Assembly (NCBI GenBank): GCA_018303075.1 | Contig: JAGVYW010000003.1 | Location: forward strand, 1,598-65,597 | Length of the DNA stretch: 64,000 bases | Direction of reading: 5' to 3' | Source of the DNA: Candidatus Woesearchaeota archaeon | GTDB taxonomy: Archaea > Nanobdellota > Nanobdellia > Woesearchaeales > DSVV01 | Shown: piece by piece, positions 1,078 through 58,839 of the stretch | Position numbering within the stretch: the stretch's first letter is position 1 | Layout: every line of letters begins with the position of its first letter | Position numbers and translations under genes: made by a program | The notes under the pieces: model-generated | Seen by the model: only the letters and a program-made list of their open reading frames with translations | Databases searched by the model: none | Told to the model about the DNA's origin: nothing

Positions 1078-2718
1078 ATGATAAAAAGAAAAGATAGAGG
1101 ATTCTTAAGAGTTATTGATGGGTTTCGGAGTGATAAAAGCAGAAATGTTTTTGCTGCTCGTGAATTTACCACAATGTTATATGAAATTCAGGAAAGAAGA
1201 GAGGAAAGAATTGTTTCTAGCGAATATGCTGATATTCCTAATAAAGAAGAGAAGATGAGTATGCTTGAGAAAATGCTTCGCCATTATCCAGACAATCTTT
1301 GCATAAAGCTTTCTGCAGCAATTGATTATCTTGAGAGTAAAGAACATAAACATCTTGGACTGCTTGTATTAAGAGAGATTGAAGAAGCAATCACTATGAA
1401 TCCTATACTATTATCAGACCTGCATAATGAAGAGAGTTCTGTTGAGAGGATTGTTGAGGATGCAGATAATAATTTAGGTAATGCAGATCTACAGCTACGA
1501 AGATTGAATATTGCAAAACATTATCTTGATCTTTATAGAGTCATCTCATTAAAAAGTAATTCTCAAAAATTGTATGATATATTAATCAAAAGCTATGCTT
1601 ATGTCTTACTGCGAGATAATGATGCTGCTTTATCTCTCTTTAGGACTATTGAAGAAATACATCCTGACGCTATTTTCATCTATAATCTATATGCAAGAAG
1701 ACTGGAAGCAAGCAATTGCCATGAGGAAGCTGGAAAAAAAAGAGCATTGTTTTCCTCATGGGCATTGCATGACAGCAACACAATATTTGAACGTGTCTCT
1801 AATGCAATGAGAAGTGTATATAAACTAGGCAATGAAGCAGTTCCTGCTGTAAACAAGACATTGATCAGCATTAGAACAAAAAACAAGGATGAAATAAGTT
1901 ATGAACAAGGTGCAATCTTAAGAGCAAAAAGAATTGTACAAGATAATTATTGCTACAGAATAGTCGAGTCTGTACATACAGAATGTATTGATGGTGTGTA
2001 TTATCATGTGCTTAGAAGAAAAAGCGGAGATGTGCTGCTGTCTTTTCTCGAGAATGAGTATAATAAAAGCCAACAATTGCCCGTGCTATCTGAAATAATA
2101 AGATTCTTACAATTGCTGCAGTTTAATATGGGTATTGTAACTAAATGCAATAAGAAAGATTGTGAGAGTCTTGCAGCAAGTTTATCTGCAAGACTTGGCG
2201 GCAATAAAATAAGATTATCTACTGAAGTAAATGATTCAATTGCTGGGCTTTGCGAAAGCTTTCTTTCTGTTCCTATTGTTTATAATAAAGACAGCCATCC
2301 TGAGAATTGGATCATTGAAAAAGTTTATGGAACGCAAGAGATATACATAATCACTGCATTAGATTTTCAGAAAAAAACATCTGCACCCTGCGTATTTGAT
2401 ATTGCAAATCTATTGCGATACGGCAATTATATCTCTGAGAAAAATGAATCAGATTTATTAAGAGAATATTACATAAGAGGATGCAATAACTTGAGTTATC
2501 TAAATGATATAGATTATCAACAATTTCTTAATAGTTATTATGCTGGAGTTGTTTATAGAATGCTGTCTTTCTTTTGCGCATGGCAACATCCTAGAAAAGC
2601 TGGATATTATACCAGGATTCCTGTTGTATTGAATAATGCTGCTGCTGCAATTGACAAGGTTGAGGATAAACAATTTGATAAAGAAAGATTGAAAGAGCTT
2701 ATTTGTTCAATACGATAA
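1078..2718 (+). CDS. hypothetical cytoplasmic protein; C-terminal third carries protein-kinase-like/APH-type phosphotransferase motifs (YNKDSHPENWI catalytic-loop-like, IITALDFQ DFG-like)
   Basis: 546-aa ORF; motif resemblance to aminoglycoside/choline kinase fold (HxDxxxxN and DxD/DFG equivalents); family assignment is from memory of motifs only. Confidence 0.35.
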   Translation: MIKRKDRGFLRVIDGFRSDKSRNVFAAREFTTMLYEIQERREERIVSSEYADIPNKEEKMSMLEKMLRHYPDNLCIKLSAAIDYLESKEHKHLGLLVLREIEEAITMNPILLSDLHNEESSVERIVEDADNNLGNADLQLRRLNIAKHYLDLYRVISLKSNSQKLYDILIKSYAYVLLRDNDAALSLFRTIEEIHPDAIFIYNLYARRLEASNCHEEAGKKRALFSSWALHDSNTIFERVSNAMRSVYKLGNEAVPAVNKTLISIRTKNKDEISYEQGAILRAKRIVQDNYCYRIVESVHTECIDGVYYHVLRRKSGDVLLSFLENEYNKSQQLPVLSEIIRFLQLLQFNMGIVTKCNKKDCESLAASLSARLGGNKIRLSTEVNDSIAGLCESFLSVPIVYNKDSHPENWIIEKVYGTQEIYIITALDFQKKTSAPCVFDIANLLRYGNYISEKNESDLLREYYIRGCNNLSYLNDIDYQQFLNSYYAGVVYRMLSFFCAWQHPRKAGYYTRIPVVLNNAAAAIDKVEDKQFDKERLKELICSIR

Positions 2719-3613
2719 TTGATGCTGAAAAATCCGCAGTCTGTGTAAGAATCTGGCTGCAGATATTAAACAGAAACATCTCTGAGTGATTCCTTGCTTT
2801 GAAATTGATGAGTTCATTTTTTATTATCTCCTGCTGTTTGCTGATATGTGTAAGCTTCTCGAGAGAAAAATTGTAATAAAGATCATAATATAATGAAAAG
2901 AAAGAGTTTACTTTTTCAAACAAAGAAATTATTTCTTGAGATATCTGCTTGTCTTTATCATCCTGCTGTTCGAAATGGTTGCAGATGTATTTATAATTAT
3001 CACAGATTTTTTCTAAATTCCATAGAATAACATACAGAAAATTAGCTTTTTTGTATTCTATTATTCTATGCTTATTAAGGATGCGCTGGCAGAAGTTTGT
3101 CAGCTGATTGTTGAGAAGCTCTAGCTTTTTTGTCTGCTGAAAATTGTAATCTCTCTGTTTTATTTTTGCTGCAGTTTCATCTGCCATCTCTATTGTAACA
3201 CGAAATGCTCTCCTAAAAGAGTTATCAAACTGCTCCTGCTGCTCCTCTACAATTGCTGAGATTACTAATCTTTTTTCGGTTTTTTCTGTAATTGTGAATC
3301 CTGTAAATAAATCTTTGAGCAATTCATTAACTAATTGAAGCTGTTGAGTGTTGTTATAGAACAATTCTATTTCATCATAGCCAGACTTGTGCAGTGCAGA
3401 CAACAACCAGCGGATAACTCGATCATCAAGAGATTCAATCGAGACTGAGATGAACTGCCTGTTGTTCTTTACAGCTGCTGTTATAGTCAATTCATTGCTG
3501 TTTTCCTGAAGATTGAGTTCATCTCCTTTCTGCAGATTATATTTAGAAAGCCATGCTAATGGAAGCGTTATGACATAGGTTTTATCAGCAATCTTGATAA
3601 TCTTACGATACAT
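2699..3613 (-). CDS. AbrB/SpoVT-like N-terminal DNA-binding domain fused to helical PhoU-like region (putative regulator)
   Basis: N-terminus MYRKIIKIADKTYVITLPLAWLSKYNLQKGDELNL matches swapped-hairpin AbrB/MazE pattern; rest is helical, PhoU-like; converges on and overlaps previous gene by 20 bp. Confidence 0.35.
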   Translation of the reverse strand: MYRKIIKIADKTYVITLPLAWLSKYNLQKGDELNLQENSNELTITAAVKNNRQFISVSIESLDDRVIRWLLSALHKSGYDEIELFYNNTQQLQLVNELLKDLFTGFTITEKTEKRLVISAIVEEQQEQFDNSFRRAFRVTIEMADETAAKIKQRDYNFQQTKKLELLNNQLTNFCQRILNKHRIIEYKKANFLYVILWNLEKICDNYKYICNHFEQQDDKDKQISQEIISLFEKVNSFFSLYYDLYYNFSLEKLTHISKQQEIIKNELINFKARNHSEMFLFNICSQILTQTADFSASIIVLNK

Positions 3614-4022: not shown

Positions 4023-4298
4023 TTACTGTGCAAATGTTGGCAATGGCGAACAACAAGCATTGACTGTATCTGTGGAACTATCATCATTTAAGCAGACACG
4101 TGTTGAATCTTTGATGTAGTTTTCATCACAGTTTGGCCCCATATTACATCTATTGCCTTGTATTTTTAGACAGTCACTTAAGCCTTTGTTGAACAATGTA
4201 ATTCTTCCTGTAAAAATAAAGGTTATCAGAATTAATACAACTAATGCTATGACTGTAATGACTATTATATTTATTGATAAATCACCGTTCTTTTTCAT
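4023..4298 (-). CDS. small (91 aa) Cys-rich secreted protein, pilin-like N-terminus (MKKNG|DLSINIIVITVIALVVLILITFIFTG), C-terminal CCSPL; paralog of 3648..3947
   Basis: ORF track start 4313 is a GTG that reads the Shine-Dalgarno GTGAGGAGA as MRRFF; true ATG at 4298 lies 7 nt after GGAGA; ~65% identity to the neighbouring paralog over the N-terminal 45 aa. Confidence 0.6.
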   Translation of the reverse strand: MKKNGDLSINIIVITVIALVVLILITFIFTGRITLFNKGLSDCLKIQGNRCNMGPNCDENYIKDSTRVCLNDDSSTDTVNACCSPLPTFAQ

Positions 4299-4340
4299 AA
4301 AAAATCTCCTCACTTTGTTCGTTGTTTTTTAAGTATAGTT
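4299..4340 (-). promoter_or_regulatory. conserved TATA/operator/SD leader, copy C (CTATACTTAAAAAACAACGAACAAAGTGAGGAGATTTTTT-ATG)
   Basis: Alignment with copies A, B, D, E. Confidence 0.5.
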
Positions 4341-6732: not shown

Positions 6733-6752
6733 AAATGCTTTCTTATTTATAA

Positions 6753-6791
6753 TAAAAAATCTCCTCACTTCGTTCGTCTATTTTTTAAACT
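6753..6791 (-). promoter_or_regulatory. conserved TATA/operator/SD leader, copy D (GAGTTTAAAAAATAGACGAACGAAGTGAGGAGATTTTTT-ATT)
   Basis: Alignment with copies A, B, C, E. Confidence 0.5.
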
Positions 6792-6843: not shown

Positions 6844-7416
6844 TTAACTTGTTGTTGTTGACTTTATTGGTGGATTAGATACTTTTACTCCATTTCCTAA
6901 ACCTATAAATTTAACTTTTATCTCTCCAGCAATTGCTTTAAAACAGATTAATCCTGCAGAATCGTCAACTTTCATCTTTTCAACCAATAATGGATAATCA
7001 GGGACGAATGGAATTGTCATGACGTTCTGGTTTTTTCCAGTCTGCCATGCATCACATATTATTGGATCAACCATTTTCTTTTTATCAGCAGATATTAGTT
7101 GTGACCCTCCACCATCATTTCCACCACAGACAATAGATTTATTTGCTTTACTTGCACCTTCTTTAGATAAATCAAAGAAACAAACATACTGTACTTTTTT
7201 TGGTACAGGAATCTCTTCAATTGTCCATGAACCATATTTTGTGCTGTATTTTTTTGCTGTTGTTTCAAGCGATGTCTTTAAGCTCAGCAGATCAATATCT
7301 TCTGTTGTTTCCATCAATTTCATAATATATTTAACTCCAAAAAATAGGAGCATACCTATAATAACAATTCCTAAGATGTACATTAACATGTCTTGAACTT
7401 GTGCTTTCTTTTTCAT
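6844..7416 (-). CDS. secreted protein with archaeal class-III-like signal peptide (MKKKA|QVQDMLMYILGIVIIGMLLFF), 190 aa
   Basis: K-A-Q followed by hydrophobic helix matches the prepilin-peptidase substrate pattern; alternative start 7428. Confidence 0.55.
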   Translation of the reverse strand: MKKKAQVQDMLMYILGIVIIGMLLFFGVKYIMKLMETTEDIDLLSLKTSLETTAKKYSTKYGSWTIEEIPVPKKVQYVCFFDLSKEGASKANKSIVCGGNDGGGSQLISADKKKMVDPIICDAWQTGKNQNVMTIPFVPDYPLLVEKMKVDDSAGLICFKAIAGEIKVKFIGLGNGVKVSNPPIKSTTTS

Positions 7417-7420
7417 AATA

Positions 7421-7458
7421 AAAAACATCTCACTTTGTTCGTGTTTTTTATATACACA
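7421..7458 (-). promoter_or_regulatory. conserved TATA/operator/SD leader, copy E (GTGTATATAAAAAACACGAACAAAGTGAGATGTTTTTTATT-ATG)
   Basis: Alignment with copies A-D; clear TATA box TATATAAAAAA. Confidence 0.5.
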
Positions 7459-20915: not shown

Positions 20916-21506
20916 ATGAATTTAAAAAAATGTTTTAAAAAGTCATTATTGTTGATTATATTTATATCCTTATGTGGAATAGCTTTATCTGCTCCTGAAG
21001 GTTATATCACCAAATTACATTACAATGACTGCGATGGGGGAGCTGTTAGTGAAGATGTTGGTGAATGCTTAGTTTCTTGCGTAGTTAGTTGTGATACTCT
21101 CGATAAAGGAAAAATAGTTGCAGAGCAGTTTGTAAAAGCTGGAACTGAGGATGGATATGGTAATGAAGGCTGGATGGATAGTTGGGTTGATCTCTACTTT
21201 CCTGATGGAAAAAAACTAACAGTTAATACAAAAAATAACAAAGATCATTTCAATTTTGAAAACTTTAATAGCGGTGATTATTCCGGTAGTTATAAAAATC
21301 TATTAGTTGGAGTGAATATAAAATTACAACAGAATGAATTAATAGTAGAAACAGCTAATAAATTCAGTGGTGCATGTCCAGGAACATTTTTAAATTGGTA
21401 CGCTAGTTATGATACAGGCAATTTAGATCATTATTGTTATTGTGCGTCACATCAAAATAATGAGAAGTTAGAAGATATATCTTATGATGGCAGCTGTGAT
21501 ACGTAA
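20916..21506 (+). CDS. secreted protein (196 aa) with Sec signal peptide MNLKKCFKKSLLLIIFISLCGIALSAPEG
   Basis: Classic n-h-c signal peptide; Cys-rich mature region. Confidence 0.55.
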   Translation: MNLKKCFKKSLLLIIFISLCGIALSAPEGYITKLHYNDCDGGAVSEDVGECLVSCVVSCDTLDKGKIVAEQFVKAGTEDGYGNEGWMDSWVDLYFPDGKKLTVNTKNNKDHFNFENFNSGDYSGSYKNLLVGVNIKLQQNELIVETANKFSGACPGTFLNWYASYDTGNLDHYCYCASHQNNEKLEDISYDGSCDT

Positions 21507-21732: not shown

Positions 21733-23007
21733 TTAAAGTAAACACTTCCAAAAATGAAAAGGCAACCTTAGTATCAATCCTTTTTTCTTTTTCTGAGAAC
21801 TCAGATTGACAAGATATGCTTTTTTCATAGGATATTCTTTTAGAAATGATTGTAAACCTAAGAAATCATCATTTTTCAGCATTTTTTTGTATTTTACTTC
21901 AATAGGGATTTGTTTTTGTTTTTCATCAATAATTATATCTACTTCATGCTTGTTTTTATCCTGCCAGAATTTTATCATTTCTGGATGTATGCCTGATTTT
22001 AGCAATTCTGTAATACAATATGCTTCAAAAAGAGTTCCTTGATCATGGCGAAGATGCAGCACTGTGAAATTATTAGTAAAATAGTTTCGTACACCATTGT
22101 CAATAAAATAAATCTTCGGAATCTTTACAAGTTCTTTATTTTTATTTGTGAAAAATGGCCGTACAACTGCAATAAGATATGTTTCTTTTATTATTTCAAT
22201 ATAATTTATCACTTCATTATAATCTAAGCTGCTCACTTGACAAATCTCTTCATATTTTATTTTTTGGCCATTATTAACTGCGATATATTCAATTAATTTC
22301 TTTACATTCATGATCTTATTAATATTTAAGTATTCCACCAAATCTTTTTTAATGTATAAATCAAAAATGCTTTCGAGCACAGCAATCTTTTCTTCTTTTT
22401 TGTTTTTTAATACTACTTCAGGATAGCCTCCAAAAATAAGAAACTCATTTAATAAATCATTGAGTTTTCCAATTGCTTGGAAAAGATTCTCACCTTTGAT
22501 AGAAACAACATTCTTCAAATGTTTTATTGCTTCTGCATCTTCTTTAAACCATAAGAATTCTTCAAAGTCCAAAGGATATATATTATTGATTATCTTCCTG
22601 CCCGCCAAAGATTCCTGAATTAACGATTTTATCTTTAGAGAAGAGGAACCTGATGCATATACTTTTACTGATGGAAGATTATCATACAAATTCTTCATAA
22701 TAATTGATATATCACCATAGCGTTGGAATTCATCCAAAAAGAGATAAAAATTTTCTTTCTTTTTCTCCTGAAATCCATTTATTTTCAACGTATTTAATAC
22801 ATTTTCATAAGTATTTACTTTCTCATAATTTGTGAAAATATCCAAATCCAAAAATAATCCTTTCTCTTTCTGATTTACACACAATTCTTCAAAAAGAGTT
22901 TTCAGTAATGTAGTCTTGCCTACTTGCCTTGCACCCAGTAAAAGAGATACTTTCCGTTCATTTTTTTGCTTCAGTAGATGTGCATATATTTTTCGCGGTT
23001 TTGCCAT
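21733..23007 (-). CDS. AAA-superfamily ATPase with C-terminal DUF4143-like domain
   Basis: Walker A LLLGARQVGKTTLLK, Walker B-like FLFLDEFQ; domain architecture typical of archaeal AAA_14/DUF4143 proteins. Confidence 0.6.
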   Translation of the reverse strand: MAKPRKIYAHLLKQKNERKVSLLLGARQVGKTTLLKTLFEELCVNQKEKGLFLDLDIFTNYEKVNTYENVLNTLKINGFQEKKKENFYLFLDEFQRYGDISIIMKNLYDNLPSVKVYASGSSSLKIKSLIQESLAGRKIINNIYPLDFEEFLWFKEDAEAIKHLKNVVSIKGENLFQAIGKLNDLLNEFLIFGGYPEVVLKNKKEEKIAVLESIFDLYIKKDLVEYLNINKIMNVKKLIEYIAVNNGQKIKYEEICQVSSLDYNEVINYIEIIKETYLIAVVRPFFTNKNKELVKIPKIYFIDNGVRNYFTNNFTVLHLRHDQGTLFEAYCITELLKSGIHPEMIKFWQDKNKHEVDIIIDEKQKQIPIEVKYKKMLKNDDFLGLQSFLKEYPMKKAYLVNLSSQKKKKGLILRLPFHFWKCLL

Positions 23008-23105
23008 AATCTAAACCTTTACAATTTTTAATTTTAGATTAATCTAAAATTTATGTGTTTATAATTTTAGAATAAACTAGTATATAAATCTTGTTGTTTA
23101 TACAA

Positions 23106-23142
23106 CTTCAATCCCATCAGCTATAATCTTTCCTTCTGATTT
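23106..23142. repeat. 37-bp perfect direct repeat, copy 1 (CTTCAATCCCATCAGCTATAATCTTTCCTTCTGATTT), 20 bp beyond HEPN stop
   Basis: Identical to 24384..24420; imperfect match continues ~10 bp on each side. Confidence 0.9.
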
Positions 23143-23161
23143 GTCTTTGTTCCATCTCTAA

Positions 23162-23614
23162 TCACATAATTATTTTTCCCTTTATTCTTTGATAGAAATA
23201 ACTTAATTCTTGTATTGCTTTTATTGAGAATCCCTTGTCTAACATTCTGCCATAATATAATACATCATTTCTTATTTTCCTATAACGATCAAATATCATA
23301 AATAGCTCTCTGTCATTTTCATTATCACGCAGAAAATATGCTAAACATATATGGTTCTGCACCTTATAGCCTTTTTGAGCAACAAATGCATGCAATAACT
23401 CTAAACAACCTTCATACATATCGCTGAAGATAATCTCTGCATTAGTATCATCTATCTTATGGTTCTCAACAAAATCTTTTCTTCGTTTTGCAGAATGCAA
23501 TAATGATTTTATTCTTTCTGAATTGGAAGTCATCTTTATTGCATTTTTGTCATCTATACAACTATGCCAATCCATATTAAAACACCTTGACCATGCCACG
23601 TACGATAATCCCAT
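23162..23614 (-). CDS. HEPN-domain protein (putative toxin of HEPN/MNT pair)
   Basis: Follows and overlaps the MNT gene; C-terminal YRKIRNDVLYYG resembles HEPN RN-x3-HG region (His replaced); start ambiguous (Met1/Met14/Met28). Confidence 0.45.
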   Translation of the reverse strand: MGLSYVAWSRCFNMDWHSCIDDKNAIKMTSNSERIKSLLHSAKRRKDFVENHKIDDTNAEIIFSDMYEGCLELLHAFVAQKGYKVQNHICLAYFLRDNENDRELFMIFDRYRKIRNDVLYYGRMLDKGFSIKAIQELSYFYQRIKGKIIM

Positions 23615-24125
23615 TAATAATACTGTTAAGCAATTCTTTATTCTTTTTTTTTAATTGGTTCACCCCTTTTTTATCATAAACAAATAATTGTATCGGCGCA
23701 CCAAACTGCTGTTCAAATCTCTGCAAATCCAAATCTAACCCTTTCTTTGTTTCTGTAAAAAGTGCAATATCATAGTCACTTTTCTCAGTATCTTCACCAA
23801 TTGCATGAGAACCAAAAAGAACAATCGTCGGATAATTCAACTGCTGTTCAAGATATGCAATCAATCCGCTTTTTTCCAGCTGCATCAGTGAATCTGTTAT
23901 CTTGTATACTTTATACCTCTGATTTTCTCTGTTTGCTAAATAGAAAAAGTTTGAATGTATCTTTTTTTTGATAATGAGCTGCTCACCTTCTAATTGTTTA
24001 ACATATCTGATTACAGAAGGCAGCCCTAAATTTAATTTCCTGCTTATTTCCCGCAACCTAAACAGTTCAGTAGAATTATGTAAAAATAGTTCTAATATAC
24101 GGTAGCCATTATAATTTTGTATCAT
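23577..24125 (-). CDS. minimal nucleotidyltransferase (MNT) with N-terminal winged-helix domain (putative antitoxin)
   Basis: IVLFGSHAIGEDTEKSDYDIALF = GS-x9-D-x-D nucleotidyltransferase motif; N-terminal HTH ISRKLNLGLPSVIRYVKQLEGEQLI. Confidence 0.65.
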   Translation of the reverse strand: MIQNYNGYRILELFLHNSTELFRLREISRKLNLGLPSVIRYVKQLEGEQLIIKKKIHSNFFYLANRENQRYKVYKITDSLMQLEKSGLIAYLEQQLNYPTIVLFGSHAIGEDTEKSDYDIALFTETKKGLDLDLQRFEQQFGAPIQLFVYDKKGVNQLKKKNKELLNSIINGIIVRGMVKVF

Positions 24126-24375
24126 GCGATATCTAAATATATCATTTGATATATAAATATATCGAAATTTTGTACGTAATAAACGAAAGTTATGTGTTTC
24201 ATGGGGGAACTGCTATTTGGCGCTGTTATAACGGAAATATATTTTAATGAGAAGATTGATGTGAATACAGTAAATAACATTAAAAATAAAATCGATAAAG
24301 ATAAATTAAAACAGTATCTTAAATAATATTCAAAGATGCTGAAAGCAAAAATACTAAAGTATTTCTAATTTTGGA

Positions 24376-25038
24376 TTAAACTTCTTCAATCCCATCAGCT
24401 ATAATCTTTCCTTCTGATTTAGTTTTGTTTAGTTTATATCTAAAATATACATTTTCTAATGACTGCTTTGCTGATGATTCATTCATGCCTAATGTAACAA
24501 AGAAACTAACAATATCTTTTGGATTTTTCATCTGATAGGGATGTACTGCAAATGATGCAATGATGCAATTTAATTTATGTTTTTGTGCTAAACTTATGTT
24601 TTGCATTACTCTGCCAAGATAATCTTCGTCATTGCTCTTTATGTTCTGCAATGAAAATGCAAGCAGTATCTTATTTTTTACCATGAGCTCTGCAAGAACA
24701 TTGTTTAGACCAGAAGAGCGCTGCTTAATTGTATCTTTGCGTTCAAATCTCTCTAAGTTAATAATTGCAGCTGGTTTTTCATTCTCAATCAATTGACGAT
24801 TATCAGCTGAATCTGCTTCATAAATAACCAAAGCAGGAAATTTTTTAGCCTTAGAAAAATCTTTTTTTGACGCAATTATTGCAGAGAAAATATGAAGCCT
24901 TGTTGTTTCCTGAAAGGATTTCTTCTTTACAAAATTCTCCAATGAATATAAAAAACAAAGACTTTTGTAACTAAGAGCTTCTGCTATCTTGATGAATTGT
25001 TCTTCATTATTGTTTGGAATTACGATGTCGCAGTACAT
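24376..25038 (-). CDS. rnp3: RNase P protein component 3 (Rpp30 homolog)
   Basis: Collinear similarity to Pyrococcus Rpp30 (VLAELMVKNKILLAFSLQNI vs VLAKLMVKKNVALGFSL; TIM-barrel length 220 aa). Confidence 0.55.
   Translation of the reverse strand: MYCDIVIPNNNEEQFIKIAEALSYKSLCFLYSLENFVKKKSFQETTRLHIFSAIIASKKDFSKAKKFPALVIYEADSADNRQLIENEKPAAIINLERFERKDTIKQRSSGLNNVLAELMVKNKILLAFSLQNIKSNDEDYLGRVMQNISLAQKHKLNCIIASFAVHPYQMKNPKDIVSFFVTLGMNESSAKQSLENVYFRYKLNKTKSEGKIIADGIEEV
24384..24420. repeat. 37-bp perfect direct repeat, copy 2, coincident with the last 12 codons (KSEGKIIADGIEE) of the Rpp30 gene
   Basis: Identical to 23106..23142. Confidence 0.9.
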
Positions 25039-25057: not shown

Positions 25058-25429
25058 CTACAGCTTAATAATCTGCAATCCGTTTATTCTCTCAAAATCT
25101 TTATCAAGAGTCAACAGTTCAACATCATGCACTAAACATGTTGCTGCAATAAGAATGTCAACTCTCCCAGTCATAATACCATGATTTATAAGATACTCCT
25201 CAATCTCTACACCCTTATAAGCAACTTTATCATCAATAGATAATATATGCACACTTCTTATAAATTGCATCAATATTTCTTTTTTGTTTGGATGCGCATC
25301 AACAAGAAGTTCATTAATAGTTAGCGCGCTAATTGCAGCTGAATGCAGTTGAATCTGTTGTTGGATCTCTTTGTATTTACCCCTACCTGAGAATAATTCA
25401 ATTATTGCTGAAGTATCAAGAATAATCAT
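25058..25429 (-). CDS. vapC: PIN-domain ribonuclease VapC (toxin)
   Basis: MIILDTSAIIELF N-terminus, conserved acidic residues; start overlaps stop of upstream antitoxin (ATGA-type junction at 25429). Confidence 0.7.
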   Translation of the reverse strand: MIILDTSAIIELFSGRGKYKEIQQQIQLHSAAISALTINELLVDAHPNKKEILMQFIRSVHILSIDDKVAYKGVEIEEYLINHGIMTGRVDILIAATCLVHDVELLTLDKDFERINGLQIIKL

Positions 25430-25683
25430 TATAATCTTTCTCTCATATTTTTAGAACGCTGAACAAATTCAATATTCATTTCTTCTCTTCTTTTTCTAAC
25501 TTTTTCTTTCCACTGTTTTGTTTCTGATTCACTCATCTTTAACGCTCCAGCAAATCTTGCAGCTGCACCTATCTTTTCTTTTGATAGCCTTAAAACTACA
25601 TCACTGAAACTTTCATCACCATATTTAACTGATTTTAACGCATTGTATGCTTCTTCTGTAATAGTTAATGATTTTATTACCAT
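25429..25683 (-). CDS. vapB: VapB-like antitoxin (84 aa)
   Basis: Small protein immediately upstream of and overlapping vapC; sequence MVIKSLTITEEAYNALKSV is antitoxin-like. Confidence 0.5.
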   Translation of the reverse strand: MVIKSLTITEEAYNALKSVKYGDESFSDVVLRLSKEKIGAAARFAGALKMSESETKQWKEKVRKRREEMNIEFVQRSKNMRERL

Positions 25684-58281: not shown

Positions 58282-58839
58282 ATGCTTTCAGTATCTGATA
58301 TATTGATGTACAACTATTGCCAGCGAAAACTTTTTTTGCAGAAGGTTCTTGGTATTATAGAGAAAGCACCAAAAGAAATTACTTTTTCTGGAACAATTAA
58401 ACATCAGGTGAGTTCTTCTATTCTTGGATTGCGAGGTGTTATTGACCAGCTTGAGATATCTGGAGAATCAGTTATACCTGTTGAATTAAAGACAGGAAAA
58501 GCACCAAAACAAGGAGTGTATGAACAGCACCAGTTACAATTAGCTGCATATATTTTACTTCTACAAGAACAATACCCAACTGCAACTTATGGCTATGTTT
58601 ATTATCTTGCAAGCAATGAGAAGAAAAAAGTACTGATTAATCCTTTTCTTAAGCAGGAGGTGATGCAGCTGCTTAATTCCTCTAAAAAACTGCTTTCTAA
58701 ACAAGTACTACCTTCATATTGTGAAAATAAGCAAAAATGTCTGAATTGTGAGATAAAAAAGTATTGCTATCATGAATCGTATGTAGCTGAGAAAATGCAA
58801 AATATTATGAATCATTCGAAAGCTTTAAATAATACTTAA
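58282..58839 (+). CDS. Cas4-like PD-(D/E)xK nuclease with Fe-S Cys cluster (stand-alone, no CRISPR nearby)
   Basis: N-terminal Cys (YNYCQRK), D...E-L-K core (IDQLEI...VELKTGK), C-terminal CENKQKCLNCEIKKYC. Confidence 0.6.
   Translation: MLSVSDILMYNYCQRKLFLQKVLGIIEKAPKEITFSGTIKHQVSSSILGLRGVIDQLEISGESVIPVELKTGKAPKQGVYEQHQLQLAAYILLLQEQYPTATYGYVYYLASNEKKKVLINPFLKQEVMQLLNSSKKLLSKQVLPSYCENKQKCLNCEIKKYCYHESYVAEKMQNIMNHSKALNNT

Follow-up and report, generated by a model that had tools for sequence, protein, structure and literature searches.

A HEPN-MNT cassette without a recombinase, inserted with a foreign gene end at the 3' terminus of Rpp30 in a Woesearchaeota archaeon, and recurrence of its footprint at other gene termini

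How does a two-gene toxin-antitoxin module that encodes no recombinase come to lie at the end of a host gene? Modules of the HEPN-MNT type, in which MNT denotes a minimal nucleotidyltransferase, have been called mobile for about two decades on account of their patchy distribution, and surveys of toxin-antitoxin systems have inferred this mobility from distribution only, with no insertion footprint or mechanism (PMC2701414). We analysed a 64,000-nt stretch of a Candidatus Woesearchaeota genome (GenBank assembly GCA_018303075.1, contig JAGVYW010000003.1, positions 1,598 to 65,597), referred to below as the window, in which an MNT gene and a HEPN gene lie between two direct repeats, one of them the 3' end of the gene for the RNase P subunit Rpp30. 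The locus supplies an insertion footprint with polarity. This footprint recurs for one cassette family in DPANN archaea, and Fic, ParE and HEPN units nearby show it as well.

The 37-mer CTTCAATCCCATCAGCTATAATCTTTCCTTCTGATTT lies at 23106-23142 and again at 24384-24420, matching at all 37 positions as the original prediction had stated. No further copy with up to three mismatches is present in the 64-kb window, over which the suggested search for extra copies was run, and a window-wide repeat survey returned this pair as the sole long perfect direct repeat. Homology around the 37-mer extends for 54 nt in total, with 9 additional nucleotides upstream and 8 downstream, and ends at the stop codon. 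Read on the minus strand both copies are in frame, with a stop two codons past the repeat. The proximal copy reads LNKTKSEGKIIADGIEEV before its stop (in short form ending in NKTKSEGKIIADGIEEV) and is the genuine Rpp30 end; the distal copy reads WNKDKSEGKIIADGIEVV before its stop (short form NKDKSEGKIIADGIEVV) and is an orphan with in-frame stops ahead of it. The 37-mer spans Rpp30 codons 207-218 and one further base and lies past the Pfam p30 domain, which takes in residues 15-196. The distal copy begins 19 nt after the HEPN stop, rather than the 20 bp first reported. GC content is about 26-34% both inside and outside the cassette and is therefore uninformative. The features of the repeat pair are:

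24376-25038, minus strand: the RNase P subunit Rpp30, the target gene (PF01876, 7e-13).
24376-24429, minus strand: the functional copy of the duplicated gene end, the last 54 nt of Rpp30.
24384-24420, minus strand: the proximal 37-nt perfect copy, an attL-like core encoding KSEGKIIADGIE (Rpp30 codons 207-218).
23106-23142, minus strand: the distal 37-nt perfect copy, an attR-like core within the orphan gene end at 23098-23151.

Chance or misassembly could produce a repeat pair, and some public contigs do show chimeric 120-nt ends and graph breaks at the repeat. However, a 37-mer match arose in 0 of 100 dinucleotide-preserving shuffles, and both copies keep the frame and the stop. Several samples, assembled independently (k141), and an NCBI Candidatus Woesearchaeota metagenome-assembled genome (MAG) share this arrangement, with identical contigs spanning both copies. 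Because these independent assemblies and the MAG agree, the arrangement is not an assembly artefact, and the comparison with a relative described next shows an insertion. We regard the probability of a chance repeat or an artefact as negligible.

The Rpp30 protein, MBS3137051.1, has a 100% identical match in a Candidatus Woesearchaeota MAG and syntenic orthologs at four further loci (L006-L009). Two of these, L006 and L007, represent a Woesearchaeota relative with 79% identical Rpp30, and share with the window the gene order MCM, TBP, ThiI, ThiS, PP-loop, VapB, VapC, Rpp30. There, Rpp30 is followed directly by a convergent gene of 190/196 aa, the ortholog of window 20916-21506, and the repeat region is single-copy, with five mismatches. 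The L006 alignment through Rpp30 ends exactly at the stop codon (24376), and it is the distal copy and its outer flank that match the end of L006 Rpp30 and 36 intergenic nucleotides after it (blastn, L006 5228-5315 against window 23149-23062, 84.6% over 91 nt). Because of this alignment pattern, the original gene end, now displaced, is recognised in the distal copy, and 24375-23143 is foreign:

23062-23105, minus strand: the original Rpp30 end in its displaced position (VV and a TAA stop), with ancestral intergenic DNA; L006 has homologous sequence after its Rpp30 stop.

By this comparison the cassette is shown to be an insertion of known polarity into the Rpp30 3' end. The earlier proposal that it was inserted there by recombination, with the incoming DNA bringing a replacement gene end, is thus supported by L006. 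The empty site foreseen in that proposal was Rpp30 directly followed by an ATPase gene; a single-copy empty site does exist in L006/L007, but not in that form, as the ATPase is missing there too.

The origin of the two gene ends could be read from their edges. The predicted junctions of a cassette-free site and of a circle would be attB = ...AACAAAACT + 37-mer + TTGTATAAACAACAAG... and attP = ...TTAGAGATGGAACAAAGAC + 37-mer + AAGTTTAATCCAAAATTAG.... The 54-nt copies differ at six positions, all within the outer 17 (P = 5e-4). The element-side edges (AACAAAGAC and AAGTTTAA) match L006 at 16 of 17 positions (chance P = 2e-8), and the host-side edges (AACAAAACT and TTGTATAA) at only 10 of 17; all six derived changes within the edges fall in the two host-side edges. 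The element-side sequences are:

24376-24383, minus strand: the element-supplied gene end, the last two codons (E, V) and the TAA stop, identical to L006 at 8 of 8 positions, unlike the displaced host end.
23143-23161, minus strand: a tail of 19 nt that separates the HEPN stop from the distal core and whose last 9 nt, AACAAAGAC (NKD), form the element-side left edge and match L006 at 8 of 9 positions.

From this edge mosaic it follows that the incoming DNA carried its own Rpp30 end. The mosaic fits a reciprocal crossover of the chromosomal gene end with a diverged copy, within the 37 nt at which the two were identical; that copy would derive from a related lineage. Target-site duplication by a transposase or casposase-type enzyme, with staggered cuts that are filled in, would likewise leave an insert flanked by direct repeats of host sequence, and the resemblance of the element-side edges to the ancestral, L006-like sequence could be counted in its favour. 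However, the differences are confined to the flanks of a perfect block, and the derived changes lie on the host side alone. Fill-in duplication is contradicted by the edge mosaic, which it is unable to yield.

The inserted cassette is a 1.24-kb unit composed of a 250-nt arm, a wHTH-MNT gene (wHTH, winged helix-turn-helix), a HEPN-like gene and a 10-nt tail before the gene-end homology. As originally described, only the MNT and HEPN genes lie between the repeats, apart from one dubious opposite-strand open reading frame (ORF) of 44 aa. The components are:

24126-24375, minus strand: the non-coding left arm, 250 nt, with no homology to L006 intergenic DNA.
24342-24371, within the left arm: a hairpin and T-run directly after the Rpp30 stop.
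24192-24326, plus strand: the 44-aa ORF in the arm, with only a sub-threshold, chance-level Pfam match; it is probably spurious.
24120-24164: two tandem 20-nt units with palindromes at 24127-24164, abutting the MNT start, the putative promoter/operator of the wHTH-MNT operon.
23577-24125, minus strand: wHTH-MNT, 182 aa, the predicted antitoxin/regulator, with an N-terminal winged helix and a minimal nucleotidyltransferase carrying G-S...D-x-D.
23162-23575, minus strand: the HEPN-like partner, 137 aa, the predicted toxin/effector, starting 1 nt after the MNT stop.

The wHTH-MNT protein matches PF18765 (1.9e-8), PF01909 and HTH_IclR, and PADLOC PDC-M05A (1.7e-14). It has 48 homologs of 170-190 aa. 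In the alignment of its family G105, S106, D117 and D119 are invariant, as the nucleotidyltransferase motif demands, and the MNT label given at first is correct by the PF18765 and PF01909 matches and by this motif. The single HEPN-like sequence had no direct match in Pfam, matched PDC-M05B weakly (1.8e-3) and gave an AlphaFold single-sequence model too poor for use (predicted local distance difference test score of 55). Its family comprises 269 cluster representatives. A 75-sequence family profile matched the HEPN structures 9xbd/9xbc in the PDB (2.7e-4) over nearly its full length, and 9 of the 75 members matched PF05168, with values down to 4.5e-8. The family motif is R99-x2-R102-N103-x3-Y107-x-G109, with a nearly invariant His75 upstream; a Tyr thus occupies the place where the canonical Rx4-6H RNase motif has its His. 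On the strength of the family profile the partner is a divergent HEPN, so that the HEPN label holds for the fold and only in this divergent form. In the same way, the description "HEPN/MNT cassette" is right in fold and architecture, and canonical RNase chemistry, toxin-antitoxin or defence activity and AMPylation are putative.

The pair matches the PADLOC candidate system PDC-M05. HEPN-MNT (HepT/MntA) type VII modules and PDC-M05 (PMC2701414, PMC3710099, PMC12988326) resemble the cassette in being two-gene operons with a patchy, 'mobile' and archaea-enriched distribution, and differ from it in that here the MNT has an N-terminal winged helix and the HEPN has Tyr for the His of Rx4-6H. In this last respect the HEPN-like family resembles the AF0298-type HEPN-T proteins, in which the motif His is missing and an alternative His lies upstream (PMC3710099). 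PDC-M05, PDC-S01 and AbiE have been reported as enriched in archaea or DPANN, with the antiviral role of PDC-M05 unconfirmed (PMC12988326). The closest non-self relative of the window MNT, at L010 929-1471 (60% identity), apparently stands alone without a HEPN partner, with 115 nt to a convergent gene.

Does the same footprint occur where other members of this family reside? At L022/L023, where the MNT is 45% identical, the cassette lies between 18-nt exact repeats. The convergent gene, ScpB, ends in ...TAMEEAKRV before its stop, and the orphan copy reads ...ALEEAKRE, with its stop in the same register and 12 nt from the next gene. No allelic variants were found among the clusters of the L022 ScpB, Metallophos and HEPN genes, which leaves L022/L023 with no outgroup. 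Further loci were sought with a profile built from a 12-sequence MNT alignment, an initial 45-sequence alignment being too diverse. Among 80 further metagenome loci the tight operon was present in 66, with the RNxxx[YHF] motif in the partner of 65 of those, and 58 loci were testable for repeats (60 in the comparison with native-sequence controls). Their neighbourhoods are unrelated to one another, and the distribution is accordingly patchy. Bracketing exact repeats of 17-52 nt were found at 7 of the 58 testable loci, where shuffled flanks reached at most 13. An alignment score of at least 17 was reached by 7/60 real cassettes and by 2/666 native-sequence pseudo-cassettes, both of the latter being neighbouring units of the same arrays; at a score of at least 12 the proportions were 25% and 5.7%, respectively.

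Together with the window and L022/L023, the seven loci from the screen bring the repeat-bracketed cases to nine. Repeat-to-repeat spacing is 1056-1278 nt in all nine, the homology is 18-139 nt long, the repeat sequences are unrelated between loci and share no common motif, and both orientations of the cassette occur. At each locus, the duplicated segment extends to a gene terminus. The 3'-end targets are Rpp30, ScpB, an HsdS-like gene, a wHTH gene and a type IIG restriction-modification (RM) gene; the 5'-end targets, duplicated with their start codon, are HsdR (L097) and an Obg-like GTPase (L095). At L051 the duplication is of 139 nt (542-681 and 1737-1876) and consists of the whole tRNA-Leu(UAA) and 54 nt upstream; the upstream block is identical at 52 of 52 positions, and the tRNA body has about 14 differences in the second copy, where a tRNA is no longer called.

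These loci also bear on target-site duplication. Lengths of 18-139 nt are far greater and more variable than those of known duplications, the contrast at L051 between a diverged tRNA body and an unchanged 52-nt upstream block is foreign to fill-in, no transposase was found in the scans, and terminal inverted repeats were absent from 9/9 units (all P > 0.1). The combination of terminal inverted repeats with a short duplication of fixed length, by which DDE transposons, miniature inverted-repeat transposable elements and casposons are recognised, is thus lacking, and we consider an origin of this kind very improbable.

Several of the loci are arrays, in which copies of one sequence of host origin separate small units. 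At L071 (107-3293), four exact copies mark off an MNT-HEPN unit, an ORF of 190 aa and a pair of HEPN genes; the outer edge of the first copy differs, and the three later copies share one element-side edge, which is readable either way, as homologous or as site-specific recombination. Three copies at L056 (3824-6216) delimit MNT-HEPN and then a Fic/DOC gene. At L064 (1197-3834), MNT-HEPN is preceded by three versions of the end of an Eco57I/TaqI_C-type RM gene, all coding for its C terminus and each closed by a separate stop, and at L090 (1459-2922) a ParE-like unit lies between 36-nt repeats of its own. Cargo of the arrays besides MNT-HEPN comprises Fic/DOC, PF05168 HEPN pairs, DUF2283, ParE-like and unknown ORFs.

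A separate observation concerns L097 (3494-3549 and 4588-4654), where the cassette precedes a type I restriction gene, hsdR. Left upstream is an orphan N-terminal piece of 22 codons, MKHPITESHVEENALDTLKNLD followed by a stop, and the functional hsdR start (MKKLITEEHVEENVLDILKNLD...) overlaps the HEPN stop. This hsdR may be transcribed from the cassette.

What catalysed the insertion? Domains of integrases, recombinases or transposases were absent from the unit and from the window ORFs scanned, which bears out the earlier remark that no integrase remains; none was seen within about 4 kb of the other repeat-positive loci, and the unit has no room for a split integrase of the type found in SSV (Sulfolobus spindle-shaped virus). 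The window does encode the Hjc resolvase, FEN1 and a Cas4-like nuclease. Folding of the repeats revealed no attC-like hairpins (z-scores -1.6 to +0.9, the tRNA-containing L051 excepted), and the GTTRRRY core is absent from 8/9 repeats.

One answer is a dedicated site-specific recombinase acting in trans, similar to that of the staphylococcal cassette chromosome (SCC) and pseudo-SCC elements or of integrons, with a cassette attP that mimics the gene end and arrays that form by repeated integration at the regenerated attachment (att) site. Pseudo-SCC elements at rlmH in staphylococci are recombinase-less and are analogous to cis-mobilizable elements (CIMEs). The layout at Rpp30, attL/attR-like and with an element-supplied stop, is a known archaeal design for integration in the 3'-distal part of genes, and the 37-nt core falls inside the range of 29-69 bp quoted for crenarchaeal att sites (PMC6563490). 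At L071, three different cassettes share an element-side edge, as if drawn from a pool with one attP, and bacterial att-flanked elements without integrase are known to be mobilised by helpers (CIMEs, PMC5704250). However, no integrase was found among the window ORFs scanned or in the roughly 4 kb around each repeat-positive locus, the repeats have no inverted-repeat or hairpin structure, and nine motif-less repeats of 18-139 nt, at 5' ends as well as 3' ends and a whole tRNA and in both orientations, would demand many integrase specificities for a single family. We consider a dedicated recombinase somewhat unlikely. Homology-driven recombination fits better than one pair of att site and integrase, because the sequences are unrelated, their lengths variable, both orientations occur and both 5' and 3' termini are used. 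The integration was called site-specific in the original prediction; as the repeats of the eight other cassettes are unrelated and of 18-139 nt, that term is not supported, and homology-driven insertion fits at least as well.

A different history would be that of a larger integrase-bearing plasmid or virus at the Rpp30 end, in which deletions spared the toxin-antitoxin pair and both att sites. Such decay is the documented route to bacterial CIMEs (PMC5704250), toxin-antitoxin pairs resist loss, and the smallest archaeal cryptic integrated element reported is already down to 2.6 kb (PMC6563490). Against this, cassettes at nine unrelated targets keep an identical minimal content of promoter, MNT and HEPN, with arms of 0-250 nt and no gene fragments; neither an integrase pseudogene nor any other remnant was seen, and its 250-nt arm holds no credible coding remnant. 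The unselected orphan copy is still identical at 37 of 37 positions, which argues for a recent event and not a long decay. We find this history improbable. The cassette itself is the moving unit, we argue, because a constant minimal unit occurs at unrelated targets and nine decays with the same outcome are implausible. Of the two options offered earlier, a minimal hitch-hiking cassette is therefore favoured and a decayed element disfavoured by the 1.06-1.28-kb unit at nine unrelated loci.

We propose that the 1.24-kb unit arrived as, or via, circular DNA that would have carried about 54 nt of the Rpp30 3' end of a related Woesearchaeon. One reciprocal crossover of the Campbell type, inside the 37 nt identical between circle and chromosome, would give Rpp30 the end of the element (EV, stop) and move the original end (VV, stop) to the far side. 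As in Campbell-type insertion-duplication generally, a single crossover would duplicate the fragment borne by the circle, and the target gene would stay intact only because that fragment includes the gene terminus, which is the rule at all nine loci. Campbell integration is familiar chiefly as a tool of the laboratory and from plasmids with shared insertion sequence copies, and is not known as a natural route for toxin-antitoxin cassettes. Since the cassette encodes no recombinase, the crossover would be catalysed in trans, most likely by host homologous recombination (a RadA/Hjc pathway); the alternative catalyst would be a relaxed-specificity integrase of a helper element, for example one like Int-pTN3. 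Int-pTN3 accepts arbitrary homologous segments for recombination, shown for segments of at least 104 bp, longer than most of the repeats here, and it also re-activates integrated elements in trans (PMC5495485). If the two repeats recombined, the cassette would come out as a circle with one copy of the gene end, and in a related genome this circle could insert again at the orthologous gene end; repeated rounds would stack cassettes into small defence arrays.

How firmly can the parts of this scheme be held? The insertion and its polarity, the foreign gene end, the absence of recombinase, terminal inverted repeats and attC from the searches, the recurrence and the ending of the repeats at ORF termini are established by the observations above, and recombinational insertion of DNA carrying a foreign gene end is in our judgement highly probable. 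We infer the circular intermediate, the acting enzyme, capture of the terminus by imprecise excision and transfer between cells. To the full reading, that of a minimal mobile cassette with a circular form and catalysis in trans, most likely by homologous recombination, we give about even chances. In a wider proposal, cassettes for toxin-antitoxin and defence functions in DPANN archaea would move without a recombinase by means of a 'portable homology arm', a captured terminus (3' end, 5' end or tRNA) by which a circle goes out and in. We consider this possible and put it forward tentatively.

Several points weigh against this scheme. It presupposes recombination on 17-50 nt of identity in DPANN archaea, and the first acquisition of a host gene terminus by imprecise excision is hypothetical. 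The data fit host homologous recombination and a trans-acting recombinase alike. A 37-nt perfect block beside strongly diverged edges would require a donor that was identical in the core, or heteroduplex correction. In favour of the scheme, the combination of perfect block and diverged flanks is non-uniform in the window (P = 0.003-0.015), at L051 (P = 0.006) and at L056 (P = 0.002), but these run-length statistics are biased by ascertainment, the cases having been picked by their long exact runs. Repeats are detectable in only about 12-25% of cassettes. When a codon-degenerate form of the core (KSEGKIIA[DE]GI) was used to scan contigs of species-representative genomes, only the 79% relative matched, and it was not found in metagenomes of the Joint Genome Institute (JGI) or in viral contigs; the MNT protein was not found in viral contigs, nor the cassette DNA among plasmids. 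Neither a circular form nor an attP junction nor an empty-site allele was found in the same population.

Candidate variants of the locus were rejected. An exact look-up with the ATPase yielded only this same arrangement, together with Logan contigs that begin with k-1 = 30 nt of the repeat and so represent graph breaks, not alleles. An Rpp30 variant (P0206, L018 713-842) comes from a scaffold in which a gap of 10 N is accompanied by 120 nt of GC-rich DNA of foreign origin, and a HEPN variant (P0208, L019/L020 1-120) has a similar 120-nt chimeric head; both were set aside as artefacts. Unrelated GC-rich pieces of 120 nt, probably the product of chimeric assembly, occur at the ends of contigs of this population in the European Nucleotide Archive (ENA) or at a 10-N gap; one of them begins 5 nt away from the repeat core and gives rise to the false variant P0206.

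Several known systems share parts of this design. Archaeal cryptic integrated elements (Krupovic et al. 2019, PMC6563490) likewise have direct repeats that include a gene end, an element-supplied stop, a displaced original end and validation by an empty site, and 14 of 68 thaumarchaeal elements integrate in the 3'-distal part of protein genes (PMC6563490). They differ in being integrase-bearing and of 2.6-140 kb (median about 17 kb), in contrast to 1.24 kb with two genes and no recombinase here, and relatives of our cassette use unrelated targets that include gene 5' ends. Of the marks of an integrated element, the flanking repeats with the element stop and the empty site are thus present at Rpp30, and an element-encoded integrase is absent. 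CIMEs and the tandem accretion seen in streptococcal islands of integrative and conjugative or integrative and mobilizable elements (PMC5704250) offer a second parallel, being flanked by att sites, free of integration genes, stacked at a regenerated att site and provided with addiction-module cargo. One CIME trait, attL and attR kept without genes for integration or transfer, is seen in the window. However, those elements are viewed as decay products that depend on a helper integrase with a defined att site, whereas here the unit is intact and minimal, the sites are unrelated, no helper was seen, the repeats have no sequence in common and the hosts are DPANN archaea. Integron cassettes, including those in clusters of attC sites lacking integron integrases (CALINs) and in archaeal integrons (bioRxiv 10.1101/2022.02.06.479319), are also small, often toxin-antitoxin, arrayed, marked by a recurring sequence and without a recombinase of their own. 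Here, in contrast, the repeats are host coding sequence or tRNA, attC is lacking, no IntI is nearby and the cassette has a putative promoter of its own; the attC hairpin with a GTTRRRY core that defines integrons was not found. The cargo type and the attL/attR logic are already known. What appears new is that so minimal a unit goes without a recombinase, that it recurs, that its repeats keep to gene termini, 5' ends among them, and that it forms arrays in DPANN archaea. In the literature searched we found no earlier description of integrase-less toxin-antitoxin cassettes bracketed by gene ends in archaea, and the wider literature may differ.

Is the region downstream of Rpp30 otherwise stable? 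Beyond the displaced gene end lies one further gene of interest:

21733-23007, minus strand: an AAA_14/DUF4143 ATPase (Pfam), PADLOC PDC-S01 (2.4e-82), outside the repeat-bracketed unit.

This ATPase is absent from L006/L007 and has no bracketing repeats. No third, decayed copy of the Rpp30 end was found beyond it, and the right junction of its insertion was not definable from the alignments. Judged by its absence from the relative, it is another insertion, independent of the cassette, in the interval from Rpp30 to the 196-aa gene. At L008/L009, where Rpp30 is 56% identical, the same spot is occupied by AbiEii and a 255-aa partner (2098-3607), convergent and starting 6 nt past the Rpp30 stop, and no gene-end repeat was detectable around this AbiE cassette. 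On these comparisons the region downstream of Rpp30 is a hotspot, with three different toxin or defence modules in three lineages.

Two further observations were made beside this spot. Upstream of the ATPase, in its promoter region (23007-23074), is a tandem/palindromic duplication of 33 nt (TAATCTAAA...TTTTAGAT), in part a repeat of the intergenic motif TCTAAAATTA, which is ancestral. On the other side, a VapB-VapC (PIN) pair at 25058-25683 adjoins Rpp30 upstream and keeps this position in the lineages with 100%, 79% and 56% Rpp30 identity; by this conservation it is an old, stably inherited toxin-antitoxin pair beside the variable spot.

Elsewhere in the window, a stand-alone Cas4/PD-(D/E)XK nuclease gene is located at 58282-58839 (PF01930, 1.7e-17). 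No cas genes turned up among the window ORFs scanned, and no CRISPR-like array in the window-wide repeat survey. A 43-nt repeat family (AAAAAATCTCCTCACTTYGTTCGT...) has three copies, at 4288-4330, 6743-6785 and 7408-7450, at the 5' ends or upstream of neighbouring small genes whose products have hydrophobic N-termini and no Pfam match; this repeat may be a shared promoter or leader of paralogous pilin-like or secreted proteins. A 304-aa protein encoded at 2699-3613 combines an N-terminal MazE/AbrB-type domain with a longer C-terminal region (weak DUF4807 match), which is unusual for an antitoxin-type domain.

What would this mean for DPANN archaea and for the HEPN-MNT family? DPANN genomes have few CRISPR and RM systems and many PDC-type systems (PMC12988326). 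Orphan gene-end fragments beside small operons are a usable signature with which to delimit cassettes in MAGs. If the cassette alone is mobile, small defence islands in reduced genomes could form without any element-encoded recombinase. The portable homology arm, if true, would be a general and previously undescribed answer to the question of how two-gene modules such as HEPN-MNT move.

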